Shown here piece after piece: positions 6,033-54,599 of a DNA stretch of 64,000 nt. The stretch spans positions 864,498-928,497 of the forward strand of contig CP089922.1 of the NCBI GenBank assembly GCA_041879355.1, given 5' to 3'. The notes under the pieces were generated by a model. That model did no database searches. It was not told the origin of the DNA and was given only the letters and a program-made list of their open reading frames with translations. Positions within the stretch are counted from its first letter, which is position 1. Each line of letters opens with the position of its first letter. Origin of the DNA: Cyanobacteria bacterium LVE1205-1. GTDB lineage: Bacteria > Cyanobacteriota > Cyanobacteriia > CAIUCS01. The position numbers were made by a program, and so were the translations under genes.

Positions 6033-7520
6033 CTAACGGGGCATCACCCTCATTAAGTCTATATTTGCTTCAATGGTATTTACCAAAATATCCAGACTGG
6101 CTTCCCGTTGTTCCTGGAAATTAGGGATACCCGTGGGTAAAGACTTCAGCCCCCGTTGTTGGCGAAGGCGGTTTAACCATGCCCGCCGCCAACAACCATT
6201 CTCAAAAATACCATGGAGGTAAGTACCCCAGAGGCATTGGCTGCTGTCTACCATTCCCAGAGTTCCATCGTCAAATAATGGCATCATGGTGAGGGGAGGG
6301 TTTTTTGTGCCACCACTGATAGGAGTGGTGCGTCCCTGATGGATTTCATAACCACGGATAGGGAGTCCGGTCTGGGGATAAAGGGAGTAGACCTGCCGTT
6401 GACGGGTAATTTTTGTCCCGCTGATGGTCGTTTTCAGGGGTAACAACTGAAGACCTATAAAACGACCCTCTAACCCCTCTGTACCTTCAGGATCAGCAAT
6501 GGTTTCACCCATCATTTGAAATCCTCCACAGATACCTAACAGGGTGCCGCCGGAAAGAACATAGTCACGGATTTGTGCCGCTAGTTGGGTTTTTTGCATT
6601 GCCAACAGGTCGGAAATGGTGGTTTTTGTCCCTGGGATAATGACGGCATCAGGACGACCTAAGGTGTCCCTAAGACCCAAATACTTTAGGTTGACACTTG
6701 GTTCGGCTGCCAAGGGGTCAAAATCAGTAAAGTTTGAGATGCGGGGTAAACGAATTACGGCAATAGTTAGGTCGCTACTACTCTTATCATTCCGACGTTC
6801 CCATAAGTCTAAAGAGTCTTCTGATGGAAAGGCATGGTCTAACCAAGGGATAACACCAATGACGGGAATCCCAACCCGGTTCTCCAGCCAAGTAATCCCT
6901 GAATCGAGGAGCGATCGCCGCCCGCGGAATTTATTGATAATAATCCCCTTGATCAAGGCACGTTCTTCAGGTTCTAGGAGTTCCAGGGTGCCAACCACAT
7001 GGGCAAATGCTCCTCCCCGTTCAATATCAACAACTAAGATGGTATGAGCATTTAGGTACTTAGCTACCCGCATGTTGGTTAAATCCCGATGCTTAAGATT
7101 AATTTCCGCTGGACTACCAGCCCCCTCGCAAACGATGATGTCATAATTGGCAGTTAGATAGTTGAGGGACCGCTGGATTTCCTGCCAACCCCGATCAAAG
7201 AATTGTTCATAATATTCTTCGGCTCCAACCTGTCCCTGTACGTTACCATTCAGGATGACTTGGGATGTCATATCTCCCAGGGGCTTGAGCAAAATTGGAT
7301 TCATTTCCACACGGGGAAGGATGCCAGCCGCCCATGCTTGCACTGCCTGGGCATAAGCAATTTCCGCCCCATTGGCAGTCACATAGGCATTTAGGGACAT
7401 ATTTTGTCCCTTAAAAGGAGTTACCCGCCACCCTTGCTTGTGTAGGATGCGGCATAATGCAGCTGTAATCAACGATTTGCCGGCATAGGAAGTTGTCCCC
7501 ACAACCATTAAAGCTTTCAT
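6033..7520 (-). CDS. cobQ: Cobyric acid synthase
   Basis: 495 aa with an N-terminal CobQ/CobB ATP-binding domain (VVGTTSYAGKS) and a C-terminal glutamine amidotransferase domain (GICGGFQMMG). Confidence 0.9.
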   Translation of the reverse strand: MKALMVVGTTSYAGKSLITAALCRILHKQGWRVTPFKGQNMSLNAYVTANGAEIAYAQAVQAWAAGILPRVEMNPILLKPLGDMTSQVILNGNVQGQVGAEEYYEQFFDRGWQEIQRSLNYLTANYDIIVCEGAGSPAEINLKHRDLTNMRVAKYLNAHTILVVDIERGGAFAHVVGTLELLEPEERALIKGIIINKFRGRRSLLDSGITWLENRVGIPVIGVIPWLDHAFPSEDSLDLWERRNDKSSSDLTIAVIRLPRISNFTDFDPLAAEPSVNLKYLGLRDTLGRPDAVIIPGTKTTISDLLAMQKTQLAAQIRDYVLSGGTLLGICGGFQMMGETIADPEGTEGLEGRFIGLQLLPLKTTISGTKITRQRQVYSLYPQTGLPIRGYEIHQGRTTPISGGTKNPPLTMMPLFDDGTLGMVDSSQCLWGTYLHGIFENGCWRRAWLNRLRQQRGLKSLPTGIPNFQEQREASLDILVNTIEANIDLMRVMPR

Positions 7521-46147: not shown

Positions 46148-46750
46148 ATCATGAAGAGAACAGGACAGAAGGGTCATGAAGATAATGAATCAACAACCGC
46201 ACAGAGTAACGCAACATATCTACAGACTTGGAATAGCAGAAGGTTTTACGGTGCAATCGTGCCAGATAGTGACCTAACCGAGAGTTTTCTCCCTCAACTC
46301 GCTTCATGGAAGTCTTGCTAATAATCTGATCACCATCAGGGATAAAACTTGGATATACAGTCCATCCATCAGTGACATAGAAATAGCATTGCCATGCCAC
46401 TACTATTGTCCATAATGGCTCAAAAGTCTCAGCACTATGATCACCTAAAGTCCAAGCTAGGATGCCCTTACGGAAATGGTCTACTGCTGTCCACACCCAA
46501 ATCTTGTTTTTTTGATCCGATAAATGTTTCCAGTTCATCCCATTCGCCCACATCGGGGATATTCTCTGGGGGATCGCATCAGGTAACTTCTTGCCTTTTT
46601 GTTTAAACCAATCAATGACTGTGGTGTGATGTACTCCCATCACTCTTTCTATAGCCCTGAATCCCATGCCATTGAGTATGGTACTCCCCAATGTCAAGAC
46701 AGAAAAAGAGTGAATTTAAGAAGTAATCTCGCTTAGCAGTGCATTTGTTG
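46125..46750 (-). mobile_element. IS1-family element (InsB-like transposase ORF 46149..46697), apparently lacking an upstream insA
   Basis: MGFRAIERVMGVHHTTVIDWFKQ (HTH) ...WVWTAVD...DHSAETFEPLW...YVTDGWTVY...RVEGENSRLGHYLARLHRKTFCYSKSVDMLRYSVRLLIHYL matches IS1 InsB. Confidence 0.7.
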
Positions 46751-47466
46751 TTGATGTTACATTAATTACATCACCTCCTTGTAAGGCATTTGTTGGTTAA
46801 TGCTGGACATAAGACAGGAAGACTCAATGCGAATCCATTACAAGGAGGCATTGCCTTTTCTGTGAACCATAGCTGGTGTCTGATAATCCAACCACTGATG
46901 TAAACGATCGTGGTTATAAAATCTGAAATAGTCCCCAATCCCTTGAATTGCCTCTGGCACAGACCTGTAGGACTTTAGGTACACATCCTCGTATTTCAAT
47001 GAGCGCCAAAGCCATTCCACAAAAATGTTGTCTAGGACTCGACTACGCCCATCCTGACTGATTGTTTCCCTCCTTTGAGTAAACGGTCAGTAAAAGCAAT
47101 GCTGGTAAATTGGCTGCCCTGGTCGGTATTGAAAATCTCTGGTATCCCTTGAGAGAGCACTTTCCAGGGCATCCAGACAAAGGGTTCCTGGCTCTGGCTC
47201 TTCCCTCGGCGATCCGCAAAGATCTCCTTGAGTCCTCCCTGAGCCTGTTTTTTCCATTGAGTAATCTGGGTTGGGTGAATTCCCATTTCACTGACAATTT
47301 CGTTGATCGTTTTATTCCCCTTGAAAACCTCTAAGACCACTTTCGTCTTAAACTTTGGGGTATGTCGTTTTCGCTGTATGGCTTGCAATCTCCTCCGTAT
47401 AGTTTCTTAGTCTATTGGCAGCGAGACTATCTTATTAACCTGTCCAGAATATGGGAAGTATTATAT
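46750..47466 (-). mobile_element. IS3-family element copy B, internally deleted. orfA is fused in frame to the last roughly 65 codons of orfB, giving a 118 aa ORF at 47032..47388 plus a 60 aa ORF at 46838..47020.
   Basis: MQAIQRKRHTPKFKTKVV...GIHPTQITQWKKQAQGGLKEIFADRRGKSQSQEP | ...IFNTDQGSQFTS...YLKSYRSVPEAIQGIGDYFRFYNHDRLHQWLDYQTPAMV. The terminal 110 bp are inverted relative to copy A. Confidence 0.7.
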
Positions 47467-47572
47467 TGTACGTGAGCATATTTTTGCTAATCTTAATAGC
47501 GATTGCATGATCTAGCGGTCATAGATCATGTTTTTGTCAATGCGCAAGTCCTAGAGACTTAAGTGAAATCAC

Positions 47573-48236
47573 ATGAAAGAGAAACTTAAACTAATCCTCA
47601 GTGAACAGGGCATTTTCCCTACTATAGATAATTTTCGGCGCTTACCTCAAATAAGCAGGTGGTTAGTAAGTGGTTGCAGGGGCATCGCACCGCCGCCAGT
47701 AAAACGTATGGTGATCAAGAGCTATTTGAGAACTTACGATCTTAATTGGTTTATCGAAACTGGAACCCATTTAGGCGATACCTTAGCTGATGTGGCCTTT
47801 GATAAATCATTGCAAACAGTGAGTATTGAATTAGCTGATAACTATTACCATACTGCTCAAAAGCGCTTTGCAAACTATACCAATGTTGAGCTTTTTCATG
47901 GAGACAGTGGAACGTTAATACCCCAGGTAGTTGCTAGGTTACAAGAACCTGCACTTTTCTGGCTTGATGGACATTATAGCGGCGGAGTAACCGCTAGGGA
48001 GAGATTTAGAAACACCAGTTAGTCAGGAACTTCAGGCAATTTTAGCCTCTCCTGTGAGAGGGCATGTCATTTTAATTGATGACATACGATGCTTTGATGG
48101 TACTCACGATTATCCTTATTTAGATGACTTTTTAGCTGCTATCCGTACCGATGGTCGTTATCACATTGAGGTGTCGGCCGATATTTTGCGTATGACTCCT
48201 AACTACTCCCGGTTCACCCATTTTTGCGAGAGTTAG
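47573..48236 (+). CDS. Putative class I SAM-dependent methyltransferase-like protein, split by an indel near 48020-48055
   Basis: Two consecutive ORFs: ...FIETGTHLGDTLADVA...VELFHGDSGTLIP...LFWLDGHYSGG, then ...GHVILIDDIRCFDG. The family assignment is weak. Confidence 0.35.
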
Positions 48237-48325
48237 AAGAATTCTATTGAGGAGTAAAAGATTGACCACTAATCTGAGTATGAATAGTAGGGGGAAACCC
48301 AAGTAAAACAAGAATACGCTGCTAT

Positions 48326-50040
48326 AACCTACATTCCGCAGGTTGACAGGGAATAAAAGATGCGGGATGTTCTAAGCTAAAGGGAAGTCCTTCTAGCAGT
48401 AGGTTCCTCCCTTGCAAATCGAGAATTTAGACCATCTCGGCTTAGTGGCGGGGATGATTGATGAATTAGGTCTAGTAGAGCTGACCAACGAGCAGATTGA
48501 ACCCCACTGCCTGGAGCATGTGAGTGCAGGGCAAGTGGTGAAAGCGATGATCCTCAACGCCCTGGGCTTTCTGAGTGTGCCGTTATACCTATTCAGCGAG
48601 TTTTTTGACAGTAAGGCGGTGTCCCACCTGAATGATGACCGCTTAGGGCGGGTGTTAAATCAACTCTACGAGGCAGGCATCACCCCATTGCTCATGAAGG
48701 TGGCACTGCAAGCGGTACAGCGGTTTGGCATCAACATCGAGCAGTGCCATCTAGATTCGACCTCGATATCGGTTGAGGGGGAGTATGCCTGGGCTACAGT
48801 GACTAAACCCAAGGGGTCAGCAGAGAAGGACAGTCGTGAGGAACCGATTCCGATTGAGATTTGTCGAGGCTATTCCCGAGATCACCGACCAGATTTGAAG
48901 CAGTTCTTGCTCACCGTGTAGCGCCGATGGGGGTGTACCGCTGTGGTTCAAGGTAGCCAGTGGCAATCGCCCCGACAGTGAGGTGTTGCCCAAGTGCTGA
49001 AAAACTTTAGCGAGCAGTGGACTCAGGAGGGAGTGTTTGTGATGGATGCTGCCTTTTACACTCAGCCAAACCTACAGCAGGTGGGGAGTCTGGGGTGGCT
49101 ATCGCGGGTACCCCTGACCCTAAAGGCAGCTCAAGCACTGGTTCAGAGCGAGGTGAGTCTGCTGTCAGAGGTCACTTGCGACTCATTGGATTATCGGATG
49201 TGGGAAGTCGAACCTATGGCGAGGTAGCCCAGCGTTGGGTGTTAATCGAAAGTCAGCACCGCAAAGCCAATGATGCCCTGTGGCGACTGGAAGTAGAGAA
49301 GCTAGAAAGTCGGCTCAATGGGCAGCTCAAGGCTCTCACCCAGACAGTGTTTGCCTGCAAACCCGATGCCTTGGACGCGGTGATGGCGTTTCAAGATAGC
49401 TTGGAGCTCCATCAATTGACCCACATTAGCCAACCCAGTCCTGTCCAAGCGAGCCCCCGGTCGTCCGTCCAAGGAGGCTGAGCCGGTCTCGGTTCAGGGC
49501 TATCAACTACAGGCAACGTTGGAGCGCAAAGCCAATACCGAAGAGACCTTTAGCCACCAGCGTAGCCACTTTATCCTGGCAACCAACCAATTGGATAAAA
49601 CGCGGTGGTCAGCGCAGAAGCTATTGCAGGAATATAAAGCTCAACAAACTGTAGAGCGAGGGTTTCGCTTCCTCAAAGACCCCCTGTTCTTTGTCAGTAG
49701 TGTGGTTGTCAAAAAGCCCCAGCGGGTCGAGGCACTGGCACTGATTATGGCTCTCACCTTGATGGTCTACACCCTGGCAGAACGCAAGCTGCGTCAGACC
49801 CTCGAAGACCAAAACCAGACGGTGTGCGACCAACGCAAACAGCCTACTGCTAAGCCCACCTTTCGTTGGATTATGCAAAAGTTTCAGGGTATTCACTGGA
49901 TCAACCTGGAGGGACAGCACCAGATCAGCAACCTGAGCGATGAGCGACGACTGATTATTCGCCTATTGGGACCACCAGTTGAGCGGTATTACTACGCATC
50001 TGGTTAATCATTTATCAATCTGCGGAATGTAGGTTAAAAC
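48326..50040 (+). mobile_element. IS1634-family element (about 1.7 kb) with 23 bp terminal IRs AACCTACATTCCGCAG(G/A)TTGA and a 5 bp TSD ACGCT. The transposase is split into 3 ORFs.
   Basis: A DUF4277-like N-terminus (MQIENLDHLGLVAGMIDELGLVE...HVSAGQVVKAMILNALGFLS..LYLF.EFF), ...RGYSRDHRPDLKQ, and the C-terminal DDE region. ACGCT is found at 48321-48325 and 50041-50045. Confidence 0.75.
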
Positions 50041-50067
50041 GCTAGTTTAGAAGATCTATATGGCGTT

Positions 50068-51125
50068 GTTGCATGAATAGGGTGTCACGAACGGGGTAGG
50101 TATAGCGTAAAGTTGAAGTACCATCTAAAACCTGACACCTATGCCGTACCGAGTCCGCAACTGGTCTGATTATAACGCTGGTCTGAAGGAGCGCGGCAGT
50201 CTCACCCTATGGTTGAGCAAAGATGCCCTTGAGCAATGGGTAATGAACACCGCGACGGGTCGGCGAGGAGCCTCTCAACTCTACAGTGACACGGCGATTG
50301 CGACTGTAGCGACCCTCAAGAGCGTATTCCATCTGGCTGGGCGTTAAGCCCAGGGATTTGTCGAATCGGTGTTTCAGTTGATGAATATCCCCTTACCCGT
50401 GCCCGACCACAGTACGGTATCGCGTCGATTGTCCGCCTTATCGGTCTCTATACCGGTTCAACCGCAGAGCAGGGCTCGGCATGTTGTGGTGGATTCTACG
50501 GGGGTAAAAGTGTATGGAGAGGGGGAATGGAAAGCCCGACAACATGGGGTGGGCAAACGGCGCACCTGGCGTAAGCTGCACCTCGGTATCGATGAGTCCA
50601 CTGGCGAGAGTATGGTCGCTGAAGTCACCACCAATGACTTTCACGACAGCGAGATATTGCCCAGTTTGCTAGAGGGCATTGCTGGTGAGATGGCTCAAGT
50701 TTCGGGCGATGGAGCCTATGACACCTTCGCCTGTCATGAAGCCATTGCCCAGCGGGGAGCAGCCGCCACTATTCCGCCTCGCCATGATGCCCGCCCCACA
50801 CTCAGCATGGAGTACCTAACCCGACCCACCCCAGGGACTAAATCTTGCAACGTATTGAGCAGGTGGATCGTGCGGACTGGAGGCAAGAGAGCGGCTATCA
50901 CCGTCGGTCTCTTGCTGAAACCACTATGTTTCGTCTCAAGGTCACCTTTGGGGGGCGCGTCCGATTCGCGGAGTTTTGACAACCAGGCTGTCGAGCTCTT
51001 CTTGCAGTGTGCGGCGCTGAATCGTATGATTCAAGTGGCTAAGCCTGATAGCTATCCGGTTGAAGCTTAACTTACTGACCTTAACGGCGAAACCCCTGAC
51101 CCTGGATTATTCATGCAACAAAGCC
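50068..51125 (+). mobile_element. IS5-family element copy 2, full length (IRL GGCGTTGTTGCATGAATA / IRR GGCTTTGTTGCATGAATA). The transposase has one frameshift at about 50345-50370.
   Basis: ORFs 50141..50347 and 50369..51070 together give a roughly 310 aa DDE transposase. The 18 bp imperfect IRs are at both ends. Confidence 0.8.
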
Positions 51126-51185
51126 TATCTTCATGACCCTTCTGTCCTGTTCTCTTCATGATTCATACTTTATCCTGCAACGCCC
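51126..51185 (+). mobile_element. 60 bp terminal remnant of an IS1-family element (identical to the reverse complement of 46125..46185)
   Basis: TATCTTCATGACCCTTCTGTCCTGTTCTCTTCATGATTCATACTTTATCCTGCAACGCCC is shared with the IS1 copy at 46125. Confidence 0.65.
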
Positions 51186-51377
51186 GGCGTTCATTTGGTT
51201 AATCAGTCGATTTTGCAGAGCATTCATTCCCGAAGAACAGCAATTTTGCCATCCATTTACAAAAACAATATAAGGACGTGATGATTGCACTGCTGCTGGT
51301 CTTGTTAACAACGCTGTTCCAAGCAATGAAGTGAACATTACCGAACTAACCTTGGTCAGTATCTTACCTAATTTCAT
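51186..51377 (-). CDS. Integron cassette 2 ORF, 3'-truncated by an IS1 remnant: a signal peptide plus a possible alpha/beta-hydrolase (lipase-like) start
   Basis: MKLGKILTKVSSVMFTSLLGTALLTRPAAVQS|SRPYIVFVNGWQNCC.... The last 9 codons of the listed ORF (51156..51185) come from the IS1 IR. Confidence 0.4.
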
Positions 51378-51501: not shown

Positions 51502-51588
51502 GTCTAACGTTCCCGCTCACCGGACGTAGATGAATTTGGCAACCAACTGACTGCTTAAATACGTTCCGGTGCAGCGGGCTTGTTAGAC
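51502..51588 (-). other. Integron attC recombination site (87 bp): inverse core GTCTAAC, imperfect palindrome with 2 extrahelical bases, core GTTAGAC
   Basis: GTCTAAC-G-TTCCCGCTCACCGGACGT...(loop)...ACGTTCCGGTGCAGCGGG-CTT-GTTAGAC. The arms pair except for a bulged T and a bulged C on the plus strand. It lies 24 bp downstream of the cassette 1 stop. Confidence 0.7.
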
Positions 51589-51612: not shown

Positions 51613-52935
51613 TTACTCCTCAGGATCTCTTGAAAATCTGTATTGCTGGATAGGCAAGTTATCTCGGCGTTCAGGTAATCTTTCCAAGGGACTAATGAAA
51701 AGCCTAGATCTCGATTCTTCTATAATACGAACCCCACCTTGATTTCTAACAAAGCTCTGAAATTCCTGTAAATTCTGAATTCCAACTCCCAATTGCAGCG
51801 AAAAATCAAGAGTCTTTGCAGATGGATCAAAAGCTTCACCCATAGCAAGATTTCTAAACCAACGAAGCTTTAAGTTTTCACTTAAAGTAGCAGGAGGAAT
51901 CATAGGAGATGATGCTGGTATCTGGGCTGTTAAATGGCAGCTAAGACAAGAGGAAACGGGATTATCTACTGGGCCGTTCCCTCGTCCAGCCCAGCCTAGA
52001 GTTTTTGGAGGATTAATCCCAGCAGGTGGATTAGAGCGATATTTTACAATTGGTGCATCAGAGTCAATCCATGATTCCTTGGGACGTTGCCCTGTATCAT
52101 ACATTGACTGTGTTAAGTCTGGATCATTACCCCACATCAGAGTTAGTGGACGAACCCTTTTCCAAGGTGAGTCAGCCTGCACACTTGAATCATACTGAAA
52201 GGTTCCAAATACCCATCCACTAGCTTTAGAACGCCCATCGCGTACTGCAACATCAATCTGTAATAATCTAACTTTAGTAGCTTGAATAGTATCTACATTT
52301 CCACTTCTATCAATGTCTGCAACCCACTCAGGAGAGCCGTCAAGGTAAGGAACCTCTGAAACAGGTGCGGTGGTGAATAACAATTTATAGGAAACTGTAC
52401 CCTCTGGGAATTTTGCTTTCTCAACATCTGGCTTATCAGGCTTAGACCACACTTGCCCAAGAGTAAATCCTCCAGCACTGTTGTAAAAACCGATTGCATA
52501 ATTTCTATACTGCTGGCTTTGCTGTGGAGATAGCTCAAATGGTCTTGAGCTACGCTCACGTGTTAATCCATGAACAAATTCACGACCATTATTCCCCCAA
52601 TGCAACCAAGGCGCGTGAAACCATTTGCGAACAGTGTTTTTTTGAACCGCAAAATCATTTTCTAAACTACCTTCATAGCTGTAGTTCAAGACAGCCATTA
52701 AATACTCACGAGGGGAAGTTCGGAAATCAATGTTCATCCAGGGAGCATTTTCAGCTTCGGGTTTTTGTTGAGGGTAATCCTGGCTTAAGACAAACTTGCT
52801 TTCACTCCAGTTAGATGGGGGACTATATCCAATATCTGGGAATGTTGCAGCTAGTACTTGATTCAAAAACAACGATTGTATAAATACAAGTATTGCAACT
52901 GTGAGAAAGCATTTCTTTATCTTCTCAATGAACAT
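51613..52935 (-). CDS. Integron cassette 1 ORF: a 440 aa secreted protein of unknown family with a single CXXCH motif
   Basis: A Sec signal peptide (MFIEKIKKCFLTVAILVFIQSLFLNQVLA|AT), no recognisable domain, and ...NPVSSCLSCHLTAQ near the C-terminus. It is bounded by the attI R box (53014-53020) and the attC. Confidence 0.7.
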   Translation of the reverse strand: MFIEKIKKCFLTVAILVFIQSLFLNQVLAATFPDIGYSPPSNWSESKFVLSQDYPQQKPEAENAPWMNIDFRTSPREYLMAVLNYSYEGSLENDFAVQKNTVRKWFHAPWLHWGNNGREFVHGLTRERSSRPFELSPQQSQQYRNYAIGFYNSAGGFTLGQVWSKPDKPDVEKAKFPEGTVSYKLLFTTAPVSEVPYLDGSPEWVADIDRSGNVDTIQATKVRLLQIDVAVRDGRSKASGWVFGTFQYDSSVQADSPWKRVRPLTLMWGNDPDLTQSMYDTGQRPKESWIDSDAPIVKYRSNPPAGINPPKTLGWAGRGNGPVDNPVSSCLSCHLTAQIPASSPMIPPATLSENLKLRWFRNLAMGEAFDPSAKTLDFSLQLGVGIQNLQEFQSFVRNQGGVRIIEESRSRLFISPLERLPERRDNLPIQQYRFSRDPEE

Positions 52936-53013
52936 TGAAACACCTAGTTTTATTTTGAGTACTTTACCGTCGAGCCAGAATCATGAAGAAAACACTGCCT
53001 AGAATTTGAAGCA

Positions 53014-53200
53014 GTCTAACTATGTATTAGACAGAAACTTTCTGTCTAATCTGACTATAGGCGATTTAGCCCGAAAGTCAAATTTCTGCCTAATCACCCT
53101 ATATGTCATGTTATACGGAAACTTTCTGACTAAATACCCCATACGTTATGTTATGAAGAATCTTTCTGAATAATCATCCAAATAGCGTGTTAGCCCGACT
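53014..53200 (-). other. Putative attI: a simple site (L box GTCTAAT, 5 bp spacer, R box GTTAGAC on the minus strand) plus four tandem degenerate 40 bp direct repeats between it and intI
   Basis: Plus strand 53014-53032 is GTCTAACTATGTATTAGAC. Repeats GAAACTTTCTGTCTAAT (53034), AAATTTCTGCCTAAT (53080), GAAACTTTCTGACTAAA (53118) and AATCTTTCTGAATAAT (53159) alternate with related 20 bp spacers. There are several GTTA-containing core-like heptamers. Confidence 0.55.
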
Positions 53201-53242
53201 AGATCAGGTATTATTTATGATAGTCACACTATTTATTTAGTT

Positions 53243-54214
53243 ATGCAGTCTGAGCCATCGCATCGAAAGCTATTAGATAGGGTACGGGATCAAGTCAGGG
53301 TTAAGCATTACTCCTATCGCACTGAAGAGACTTATGTACAGTGGATTCGGCGATTTATCTTGTTTCACAACAAGCGGCATCCTAGCGAGATGGATGGCGA
53401 TGAAGTGAATGCCTTTTTGACCCACTTGGCGGTGCATGAAAATGTGGCAGCATCAACCCAAAACCAAGCTCTATGCGCCATTTTGTTTTTATATCGTGAG
53501 GTATTGCAGCAAGAGCTAAACCTCAATCTGGACACAGTGAGAGCAAAGCGTCCCCATTACTTGCCAACGGTCTTGACTGTTGAAGAAACTTTAGAAATCT
53601 TAAAAAATCTTACGGGTGTTTATCAGATTGTTGCCAAGTTGCTTTATGGTTCGGGATTACGCCTCAATGAAGCATTGTCCCTACGGGTTAAGGATCTTGA
53701 TTTTGCCCAACAGCAGATTATTGTCAGAGATAGTAAGGGGATGGAAAGTCGTGTAACAATGCTGCCCAAAAATGTTGTTGAGCAACTTAAAGAACATTTA
53801 CAACAGGTAAAGCGTACACATCAACAGGATCTAGATAGAGGTTATGGGGAGACGCTGTTACCCTTTGCTTTACAGAAAAAATATCCTAACGCCGCCAAAG
53901 AATGGATTTGGCAATATGTATTTCCTGCGGGTCGCATTGCCAAAGATCCGCGTAGTGAATTGATGTGTCGCTATCATCTTCATGAAAGCGGAATGCAAAA
54001 ATCGCTGAAGCAAGCCGTGAGAATTGCCAAGATCGAAAAACGGATCGGATGTCATACCTTTCGCCATAGTTTCGCTACACATTTATTGCAAAATGGCTAT
54101 GATATCCGCACGGTGCAAGAGTTATTGGGACATAAAGATGTAAAGACAACGATGATTTATACCCATATGCTGAATCGGGGTGGAAAGGGTGTGATTAGTC
54201 CGCTTGATCGCTAG
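53243..54214 (+). CDS. intI: Integron integrase
   Basis: 323 aa tyrosine recombinase with catalytic R ([15 protein letters not shown]), H-x-x-R ([13 protein letters not shown]) and Y (MIYTHML). It has the IntI-specific additional domain ([20 protein letters not shown]) and an IntI-type C-terminus ([28 protein letters not shown]). Confidence 0.93.
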
Positions 54215-54254: not shown

Positions 54255-54365
54255 ATGGCAAAAGCAAAAAGTCGATATGTATGTAATGACTGTGGTGAAG
54301 ACTTTCCACAGATGTATGGCAAATGTCCTACTTGCTCTAGTTGGGGAACCTTGCAAGAGGAAATA
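54255..54365 (+). pseudogene. radA: 5' fragment (first roughly 37 codons) of DNA repair protein RadA/Sms. The rest of the gene is absent from the window.
   Basis: MAKAKSRYVCNDCGEDFPQMYGKCPTCSSWGTLQEEI is the RadA C4 zinc-finger N-terminus. After residue 37 the ORF reads unrelated sequence. Confidence 0.7.
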
Positions 54366-54599
54366 ATTCCTGTCATGTCCACAAGTACCAATGCGATCGC
54401 ATTAAGCTATAGCAAACCCTGTATACTCGCGTATCTTAGGATAACGAAAGCCAAGTACTATATCCTCTTTGGGAATACCTGCTTCCACTAAATCAGGGGT
54501 AGTCCTTACCCCAAAATCATTACCTTCTTGCCACTACCATAAACGAATTGGGTAAAAAACAACCCTGCCATGATTTACGTCAGTGTGAATTGGATCAAT

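Follow-up and report, generated by a model that had tools for sequence, protein, structure and literature searches.

The way in which attI sites are recognized and processed by integrases is what is understood least about integrons; according to one paper, attI is a gap in present knowledge, and the two DR sites of attI1 are the only ones that have been studied. The integron analysed here carries a regular series of repeats between its first cassette and the integrase gene intI, which an earlier note on this DNA had read as an attI-like region built from four tandem units. The question raised by this locus is what these repeats are and which protein they could serve. They were analysed in the window, that is, the whole stretch of DNA under study (64,000 nucleotides), and in related loci.

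Integron setting of the repeats

The gene next to the repeats encodes an integron-type tyrosine recombinase that includes the IntI-specific insertion (Table 1). The V. cholerae integrase IntI4 (PDB 2a3v) aligns with it over its full length (E = 9e-90), and the alignment is nearly gapless (one indel of a single residue), the segment of residues ~195-235 included. The nearest relatives of this IntI (85-96% identity) come from Pseudanabaena and Pseudanabaenales assemblies, and FtsZ is located just downstream. Therefore, this is a chromosomal integron of the Pseudanabaena type, carried by a Pseudanabaena-like cyanobacterium.

The platform also holds a cassette that ends in an attC hairpin. A relaxed attC scan of the window gave equal numbers of matches on both strands, which corresponds to noise, and only the attC at 51502-51588 was convincing. 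The ORF of this first cassette did not match any Pfam or NCBIfam family; by eye, it shows a hydrophobic N-terminus and a CLSCH motif (CXXCH-like). The second cassette is interrupted by IS-type transposase genes. Transposase fragments (IS1, HTH_Tnp_1, DUF4277, DDE_Tnp_1 and DDE_Tnp_1_5) occupy positions 46149-51070, in a cluster that starts ~85 bp past the short ORF of the second cassette (51156-51377), and the cassette array seems to be eroded by IS insertions. Beyond intI, an ORF of 78 amino acids (54255-54491, plus strand) shows a RadA/Sms-like start, with a zinc-ribbon match only, and then a stop; it may be a truncated or interrupted radA adjoining intI.

Two observations concern the relatives of the integrase. 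One Pseudanabaenales MAG contains two intI loci (L002 and L003) that have 95% and 90% identity to the window IntI and differ in array subtype. In the complete genome of Pseudanabaena minima Chao 2107 (L040), the match spans IntI residues 93-323 only, and this intI may be 5'-truncated.

The attI simple site and the crossover point

The simple site proposed at 53014-53032, GTCTAAC-TATGT-ATTAGAC (GTCTAAT-ACATA-GTTAGAC on the minus strand), was borne out as the recombination junction by comparison with relatives. For this, 16 related loci were anchored on AACTATGT. Identity among them was 26% over the 60 nt on the cassette side, which is the random level, versus 75% over the 36 nt on the intI side, and the bases directly left of the homology break fit RYYYAA/C (the slash marks the crossover) in each related locus. 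Because the homology among relatives stops there and this fit holds, the crossover is placed between 53019 and 53020. An R box of the GTTRRRY type is thus found at the border between a conserved platform and variable cassettes, which is what characterizes an attI site. A terminator-like hairpin with a T-rich tail (52994-53015, minus strand) was also observed directly past the R box, where the first cassette begins; it is downstream of the candidate cassette promoter.

Anatomy of the repeat array

Tandem Repeats Finder described the array with a period of 40, 2.3 copies and 78% matches. The four repeats are present where the earlier note had placed them, with TTTCTGNMTAAW cores that start at 53039, 53083, 53123 and 53163, in steps of 44, 40 and 40 bp. 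When TTTCTGNCTAAT was searched with at most one mismatch, five matches were found in the 64-kb window, all of them in 53026-53174, for a chance expectation of ~1.7 per window. The fifth match, which had been missed, is on the opposite strand (53026-53037) and pairs with repeat 1 in a perfect 12+1+12 palindrome, ATTAGACAGAAA-c-TTTCTGTCTAAT.

The two alternating spacer types that had been described are also present (53057-74 and 53182-98; 53099-116 and 53139-56), but they are not spacers, as they hold the inverted half-sites TTTAGCCCGAAA, GTTATACGGAAA, GTTATGAAGAAT and GTTAGCCCGACT. Repeats and supposed spacers together are nine copies of one 12-bp half-site, RTTAKNCNGAAA, composed of a GTTRRRY-like heptamer and a 5-bp extension. 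Hence, the four direct repeats exist, but the unit is not a repeat with two kinds of spacer; it is a 25-bp palindrome plus a 15-bp spacer, with 8-9 sites in both orientations (Table 1).

The half-sites form four tail-to-tail palindromes in a 40-bp phase plus a degenerate lone copy at the intI promoter. Their orientation alternates, with four half-sites and the lone copy on the plus strand and four on the minus strand. The four repeats show, in R-box orientation, the core-site-like heptamers that had been pointed out for them; the heptamers of the array are ATTAGAC, TTTAGCC, ATTAGGC, GTTATAC, TTTAGTC, GTTATGA, ATTATTC and GTTAGCC. The array adjoins the simple site on the intI side and shares its core heptamer, as expected of accessory repeats, and it is continuous with the simple site because half-site 1 is the L box. 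The lone half-site 9 scores below the PWM threshold in the window; gtGTTAGCCCGAC is kept in the subclade, and the counterpart of this copy passes as a half-site in L004 and L005. Judging from the spacing, the head-to-head distance in the array (15 bp) may correspond to the core-site distance (5 bp) plus one helical turn. No motif palindrome or cluster was found anywhere else in the window.

Table 1. Features of the integron platform and of the repeat array, with positions in the window.
Feature	Position	Strand	Description
First-cassette attC	51502-51588	-	R'' GTCTAAC ... R' GTTAGAC; 87 nt hairpin; -38.6 kcal/mol
First gene cassette ORF	51613-52935	-	440 aa; between attI crossover and attC
attI-intI intergenic region	53014-53243		
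R box of simple site	53014-53020	-	GTTAGAC, fits GTTRRRY; DNA up to 53019 belongs to first cassette
L box = half-site 1	53026-53037	+	ATTAGACAGAAA; left arm of palindrome 1; PWM 19.6 bits; 5 bp from R box
Half-site 2	53039-53050	-	ATTAGACAGAAA; repeat 1 of earlier note
Candidate Pc	53054-53081	-	TTGACT (53081-53076), 16 nt, TATAGT (53059-53054); toward cassettes; 10/12 consensus
Half-site 3	53065-53076	+	TTTAGCCCGAAA; left arm of palindrome 2, inside "spacer type 1"; PWM 12.5 bits
Half-site 4	53083-53094	-	ATTAGGCAGAAA; repeat 2; PWM 18.6 bits
Head-to-head spacer, 15 bp	53095-53109		CACCCTATATGTCAT; CCC, A/T-rich centre, G-rich end
Half-site 5	53110-53121	+	GTTATACGGAAA; left arm of palindrome 3, inside "spacer type 2"; PWM 17.2 bits
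Half-site 6	53123-53134	-	TTTAGTCAGAAA; repeat 3; PWM 12.5 bits
Second head-to-head spacer, 15 bp	53135-53149		TACCCCATACGTTAT
Half-site 7	53150-53161	+	GTTATGAAGAAT; left arm of palindrome 4; PWM 11.8 bits
Half-site 8	53163-53174	-	ATTATTCAGAAA; repeat 4; PWM 15.7 bits
Half-site 9	53189-53200	+	GTTAGCCCGACT; lone, degenerate; overlaps -35 region of candidate PintI
Candidate PintI, -10	53209-53214	+	TATTAT; 28 nt upstream of intI ATG; -35 weak
intI	53243-54214	+	Integron integrase, 323 aa; TIGR02249 458 bits (cutoff 265)
Palindrome 1	53026-37 / 53039-50		Left arm = L box
Palindrome 2	53065-76 / 53083-94		Centre 6 nt rather than 1 nt
Palindrome 3	53110-21 / 53123-34		
Palindrome 4	53150-61 / 53163-74		

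Conservation and specificity of the array

With a position matrix derived from 17 close loci, half-sites were sought in 42 further cyanobacterial intI loci. In these independent loci, half-sites occurred at 12.2/kb in the 260 bp upstream of intI versus 0.15/kb elsewhere (~80-fold), and 28 palindromes were found inside this 260-bp stretch and none outside. The assignment of the repeats to attI depended on homologous integrons also having them, and it held, since the cyanobacterial homologues do carry the array upstream of intI. A further 20 loci, mostly non-cyanobacterial, showed no array (half-sites at 1.0/kb versus 0.24/kb elsewhere, and no palindromes either inside or outside the stretch). 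A generic palindrome finder (arm 11, at most 2 mismatches) was also run on all loci; it was too strict for the degenerate arms and little was gained over the matrix. In an NJ tree of IntI, the array-bearing integrons belong to one cyanobacterial clade, and those of Chloroflexi and other phyla are placed outside it.

The phase of the array is conserved as well. Spacings between half-sites of the same orientation in the 42 loci were 40 bp (31 cases), 41 bp (12) and 42 bp (2), plus multiples near 80 and 120 bp. An autocorrelation of the 190 bp upstream of intI, independent of the motif, peaked at lag 40/41 or 79-83 in 46 of the 51 cyanobacterial loci and in 2 of the 17 non-cyanobacterial ones. 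Across loci, the gap at the palindrome centre was 1 bp in 84 of 93 pairs, and head-to-head spacers of 15 bp (47 cases) predominated over those of 16 bp (15) and 14 bp (7). The consensus of this spacer is dyad-like, with CCC at positions 3-5, T/A at positions 6-10 and GG at positions 11-12. Half-sites numbered 3-10 per locus (~13 by eye in L034), and L008 has one unit fewer than its relatives.

Dispersal of the unit over the genome, which would have made it a generic repeat, was looked for in the window and in ~0.7 Mb of flanks of related loci (79 loci), and no palindromes were found outside the attI regions. For the window and these flanks, a dispersed repeat or MITE was consequently rejected, the strong copies of the window being all in 53026-53174. 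A CRISPR-like or iteron-like array was rejected too, in view of the conserved "spacers" and of sites that run on from the recombination core.

In the Leptolyngbya-type clade (L017, L018, L020, L022, L025 and L037), a conserved inverted repeat of the form TGTACTATT...ACAGTACA was observed ~25-55 nt upstream of intI, in the interval that separates the array from the start of the gene. This repeat could be an operator for another regulator.

Candidate promoters overlapping the array

Two candidate promoters, Pc toward the cassettes and PintI toward the integrase gene, were recognized by consensus match and conservation. For Pc, TTGAC[AT]-N16/17-TATA[GAT]T is found at the same place in all the loci of the window's subclade (11/11). 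Palindrome 2 has a centre widened to 6 nt, into which the -35 hexamer of Pc falls, and this is the reason for the 44-bp step between repeats 1 and 2. For PintI, TATTAT is present at -32 to -34, again in 11/11 loci of the subclade; the promoter scan gave no PintI call, owing to the poor -35. Since the array covers both promoters, any protein filling it would sit on Pc and PintI.

A LexA/SOS-controlled intI promoter was considered and rejected, as there is no cyanobacterial LexA box overlapping PintI. The box RGTACNNNDGTWCB (at most 1 mismatch) had no match in 53000-53243, this consensus being cyanobacterial and perhaps not the one of this genus; its 15 matches in the window are at chance level.

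In view of these features, the earlier interpretation is partly supported, being right in kind and wrong in anatomical details. The region is the attI region of a real integron, as had been proposed, but one of its units is modified to hold a conserved candidate promoter directed toward the cassettes, and the L box itself is the first site of the array.

Arrays without intI in metagenomes

Metagenomes were scanned with the exact palindrome RTTAKNCNGAAANTTTCNGNMTAAY. The scan gave at least 120 stretches, 80 of which were kept (L081-L160), and no palindrome was found in the viral contigs scanned. Automated calling of simple sites and attC missed obvious junctions in these sequences, and a simpler rule with inspection by eye was used instead. 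Most of the kept stretches show the same design, with an AAC-N3-6 junction by the terminal palindrome and half-sites at 40-bp steps.

The integrase gene is at the expected place in four of the 80 stretches kept from the at least 120 found. Another 18 of them have at least 1.3 kb on the intI side and no intI, and 15 more have 600-1300 bp on that side with no intI match; the remaining ones gave no clear call or are isolated palindromes, possibly due to chance. Arrays of the intI-less type are, for example, L087 1721-1865, L149 7340-7483 and L094 3799-3870. Where examples were examined, cassette-like genes (DUF433, Fic/Doc-like by eye, PIN) and sometimes a recognizable attC were found on the junction side, and housekeeping genes such as ArgZ and protein kinases on the opposite side. 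Arrays thus persist without an adjacent intI; therefore, autoregulation of intI cannot be their sole role, and the array is a property of the recombination platform and not of the intI promoter alone.

In some contigs the array is part of a recurring ~370-bp module between cassette-like ORFs. This was the case of L103 (8015-8386 and 4542-4912, both on the minus strand, with a partial copy at ~6779-6900) and L144 (1719-2285, plus strand). The modules have outward-facing R boxes at both ends, RYYYAAC ... G/TTRRRY, and the homology between copies stops at G/TT on both sides. As far as these sequences indicate, the topology of the module would be that of an attC site, and it resembles a giant attC or a double-ended attI.

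A broader proposal, speculative and rather unlikely, is that the cyanobacterial attI could be a self-contained phased scaffold of up to ~14 IntI arms that would replace the host accessory factors and the LexA control of proteobacterial integrons. In such a case, the same module might also occur as intI-less landing pads served in trans and, in the ~370-bp junction elements with attC-like ends between cassettes, as a natural attI-attC intermediate.

The probable binder of the array

With the anatomy, crossover, conservation, phasing, attI restriction and L-box continuity observed, it is very likely that this is a conserved and functional protein-binding array associated with attI. The protein in question is probably IntI itself, to judge from the sites. 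The L box, which is an integrase arm by its position, is the best-scoring copy of the repeated 12-mer, and every half-site carries a core-like heptamer. An arm of 12 bp is normal for tyrosine recombinases (13 in Cre, 13 in Flp and 11 in XerCD).

Changes between lineages point in the same direction. In those with an altered 5-bp extension, the L box and the array copies are altered alike; the extension is AGAT(C) in L034 and L048 and TGAC/GGAC in L074, and the first palindrome of L015 is ATTATCCTGTGA, the remaining L015 array being hard to parse. On the protein side, residue 253 of IntI (window 53999-54001) is K in every IntI with a GAAA-type array except L014 (R), and it is R in three independent lineages with other extensions (L015, L034/L048 and L054). 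This residue is located in the helix HESGMQK, after the residues that align with H240/H241 of V. cholerae. The pattern of K253R and extensions weakly supports IntI as the binder, K253R being a conservative change that is also present in L014 despite its GAAA-type extension. Residues unique to the variant-half-site lineages occur at 11 and 5 positions of IntI, mostly C-terminal and with no clear clustering, and K253R alone recurs.

The palindromes could instead be the operators of a different protein, either a dimeric host regulator or an architectural accessory factor of attI, which every 40 bp would control Pc/PintI and/or bend attI, IntI being on the simple site only. The sites are indeed 25-mers with dyad symmetry, as classical operators are; the spacer also contains a conserved dyad (CCC-TATA-GGG), two divergent candidate promoters fall within the array, and the confinement of the array to cyanobacterial hosts would agree with a host protein. 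Moreover, attI x attC recombination in chromosomal integrons of the V. cholerae type is believed to require host factors, and the lack of a cyanobacterial LexA box upstream of intI makes some other control plausible. However, we regard this explanation as unlikely, given that the L box, at a distance of 5 bp from the R box, is itself the left arm of palindrome 1, that the GTTRRRY-like heptamer defining IntI sites is in every half-site, and that the L-box extension and the array change together between lineages. A regulator would also fit poorly with the absence of palindromes outside attI regions in the ~0.7 Mb of flanks, and with the ordinary and unrelated genes that flank the intI-less arrays L094, L116 and L158 (the three intI-less loci examined). 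On the other hand, the palindromes might act through structure, as hairpins or cruciforms extruded from single-stranded or supercoiled DNA that mimic the R-box stem of folded attC. Folded attC is known to be recognized by IntI, the region folds well as ssDNA (-24.9 kcal/mol, z = -4.5), and palindrome 1 is perfect in six loci. Nevertheless, the arms of inner palindromes differ by 3.75 mismatches of 12 within the same palindrome versus 3.41 between different palindromes, so there is no compensatory change; the first palindromes are somewhat more symmetric (2.78 mismatches). This lack of co-variation between the arms of one palindrome speaks for independent half-sites for a protein on duplex DNA and against hairpins. 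In addition, a centre of 1 nt leaves no loop unless the stem melts, and there was no Rfam match at E <= 1. Recognition by structure is therefore very improbable, and a folded DNA or RNA element, whether an attC-like hairpin or an ncRNA, was rejected on the same grounds of no compensatory arm change and no Rfam match at that threshold.

It is hardly credible, finally, that the array is a neutral by-product, that is, the result of the simple site being duplicated in tandem, or some generic repeat or MITE of cyanobacteria located here by chance. The copy number does vary among relatives (3-10 half-sites, with one unit fewer in L008), and the ~370-bp array-containing module recurs within one locus in some metagenome contigs. 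But four features (the half-site, a centre of 1 bp, a spacer of 15 bp and a phase of 40 bp) persist among loci whose IntI proteins are just 64-70% identical, the rest of the window and the flanks are without the array, viral contigs gave zero matches, and the recurring copies are still bounded by R-box junctions beside cassette-like genes.

The explanation that we favour, with some confidence, is an extended attI, in which the array would be a multi-site IntI-binding scaffold and an enlarged analogue of DR1/DR2 of attI1. IntI would most likely bind as one monomer per half-site. Many IntI molecules would then be held beside the core, and attI would become a defined nucleoprotein scaffold that could promote attI x attC synapsis or give it an orientation, in the manner of DR1/DR2 in attI1 and of the TnpI accessory motifs. 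Pc would be covered by palindromes 1 and 2 and the intI -35 region by the last half-site, and IntI occupancy might exert feedback on the transcription of the cassettes and of intI. Both the architecture of the synapse and the transcriptional feedback are consequences that we infer from this arrangement. We know of no productive geometry with tail-to-tail pairs separated by a 1-bp gap and head-to-head pairs 15 bp apart. The CCC-TATA-GGG spacer could be the site for a second protein.

Comparison with known attI sites and other recombination systems

[quoted passage not shown] The likeness to attI1 that had been suggested stands in so far as, in both cases, additional core-like GTTA heptamers come after the L and R boxes of the simple site in the direction of intI, here expanded into a regular array. 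It fails in that the half-sites alternate and are not all direct repeats. The direct repeats of attI1 are two, each of 7 bp, within ~65 bp, whereas the present array adds 8 sites of 12 bp along ~175 bp; these face both ways and are arranged in palindromes with a strict 40-bp phase and conserved spacers. Furthermore, in contrast to attI1, the L box is the consensus copy and not the degenerate one, and a candidate cassette promoter is built into one unit. Because the sites are not direct repeats, the array is set apart from the DR1/DR2 type, as a probable new form of accessory recombinase sites. These features point to an integrase-docking platform much larger than any described attI site.

Beyond integrons, the internal resolution site of Tn4430 (TnpI; core IR1-IR2 and accessory DR1-DR2) has accessory motifs that bind extra TnpI subunits and set the synapse geometry. 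As in the present array, these motifs share the recombinase-binding sequence of the core half-sites. However, it belongs to a resolution system and not to an integron; its accessory motifs are two in tandem, in 116 bp, and it lacks both palindromic pairs and a 40-bp array. By analogy, the array may work most like DR1/DR2 of attI1 and the accessory motifs of Tn4430. The attIA site of V. cholerae is free of repeated sequences and is believed to depend on host factors; like this locus, it belongs to a sedentary chromosomal integron in which intI and the cassettes diverge and the stretch from attI to intI contains a promoter region.

The arm-type sites of lambda Int and its related integrases are another case in which multiple recombinase sites flank the core and build a higher-order complex. 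Their sequence differs from that of the core and a separate N-terminal domain recognizes them, together with IHF, Xis and Fis. In this array, by contrast, the core-arm sequence is repeated in the extra sites, and IntI, which has an ordinary length (323 aa), matches IntI4 end-to-end.

No description of such an array was found in the literature on cyanobacterial attI or integron repeats that was searched, a search with most subscription journals outside its scope. A clade-wide attI with at least 8 extra consensus arms in fixed phase is a natural system in which to study how accessory subunits shape the attI x attC synapse, and it is also suited to asking whether IntI feeds back on Pc and PintI. 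Moreover, the 12-bp motif together with the 40-bp phase is a sequence signature with which attI can be located in cyanobacterial genomes, and it already exposes many cassette arrays with an attI-like platform and no integrase nearby. To our knowledge, current tools annotate attI1-3 only.

Outside cyanobacteria, a Planctomycetota MAG (L059) shows direct repeats of the form GTTATG...TTTTTTTGGTC with a ~30-bp period, ~300 nt upstream of intI, and its autocorrelation reaches 0.46 at lag 30. GTTA-type repeats upstream of intI may exist in other forms outside this phylum.
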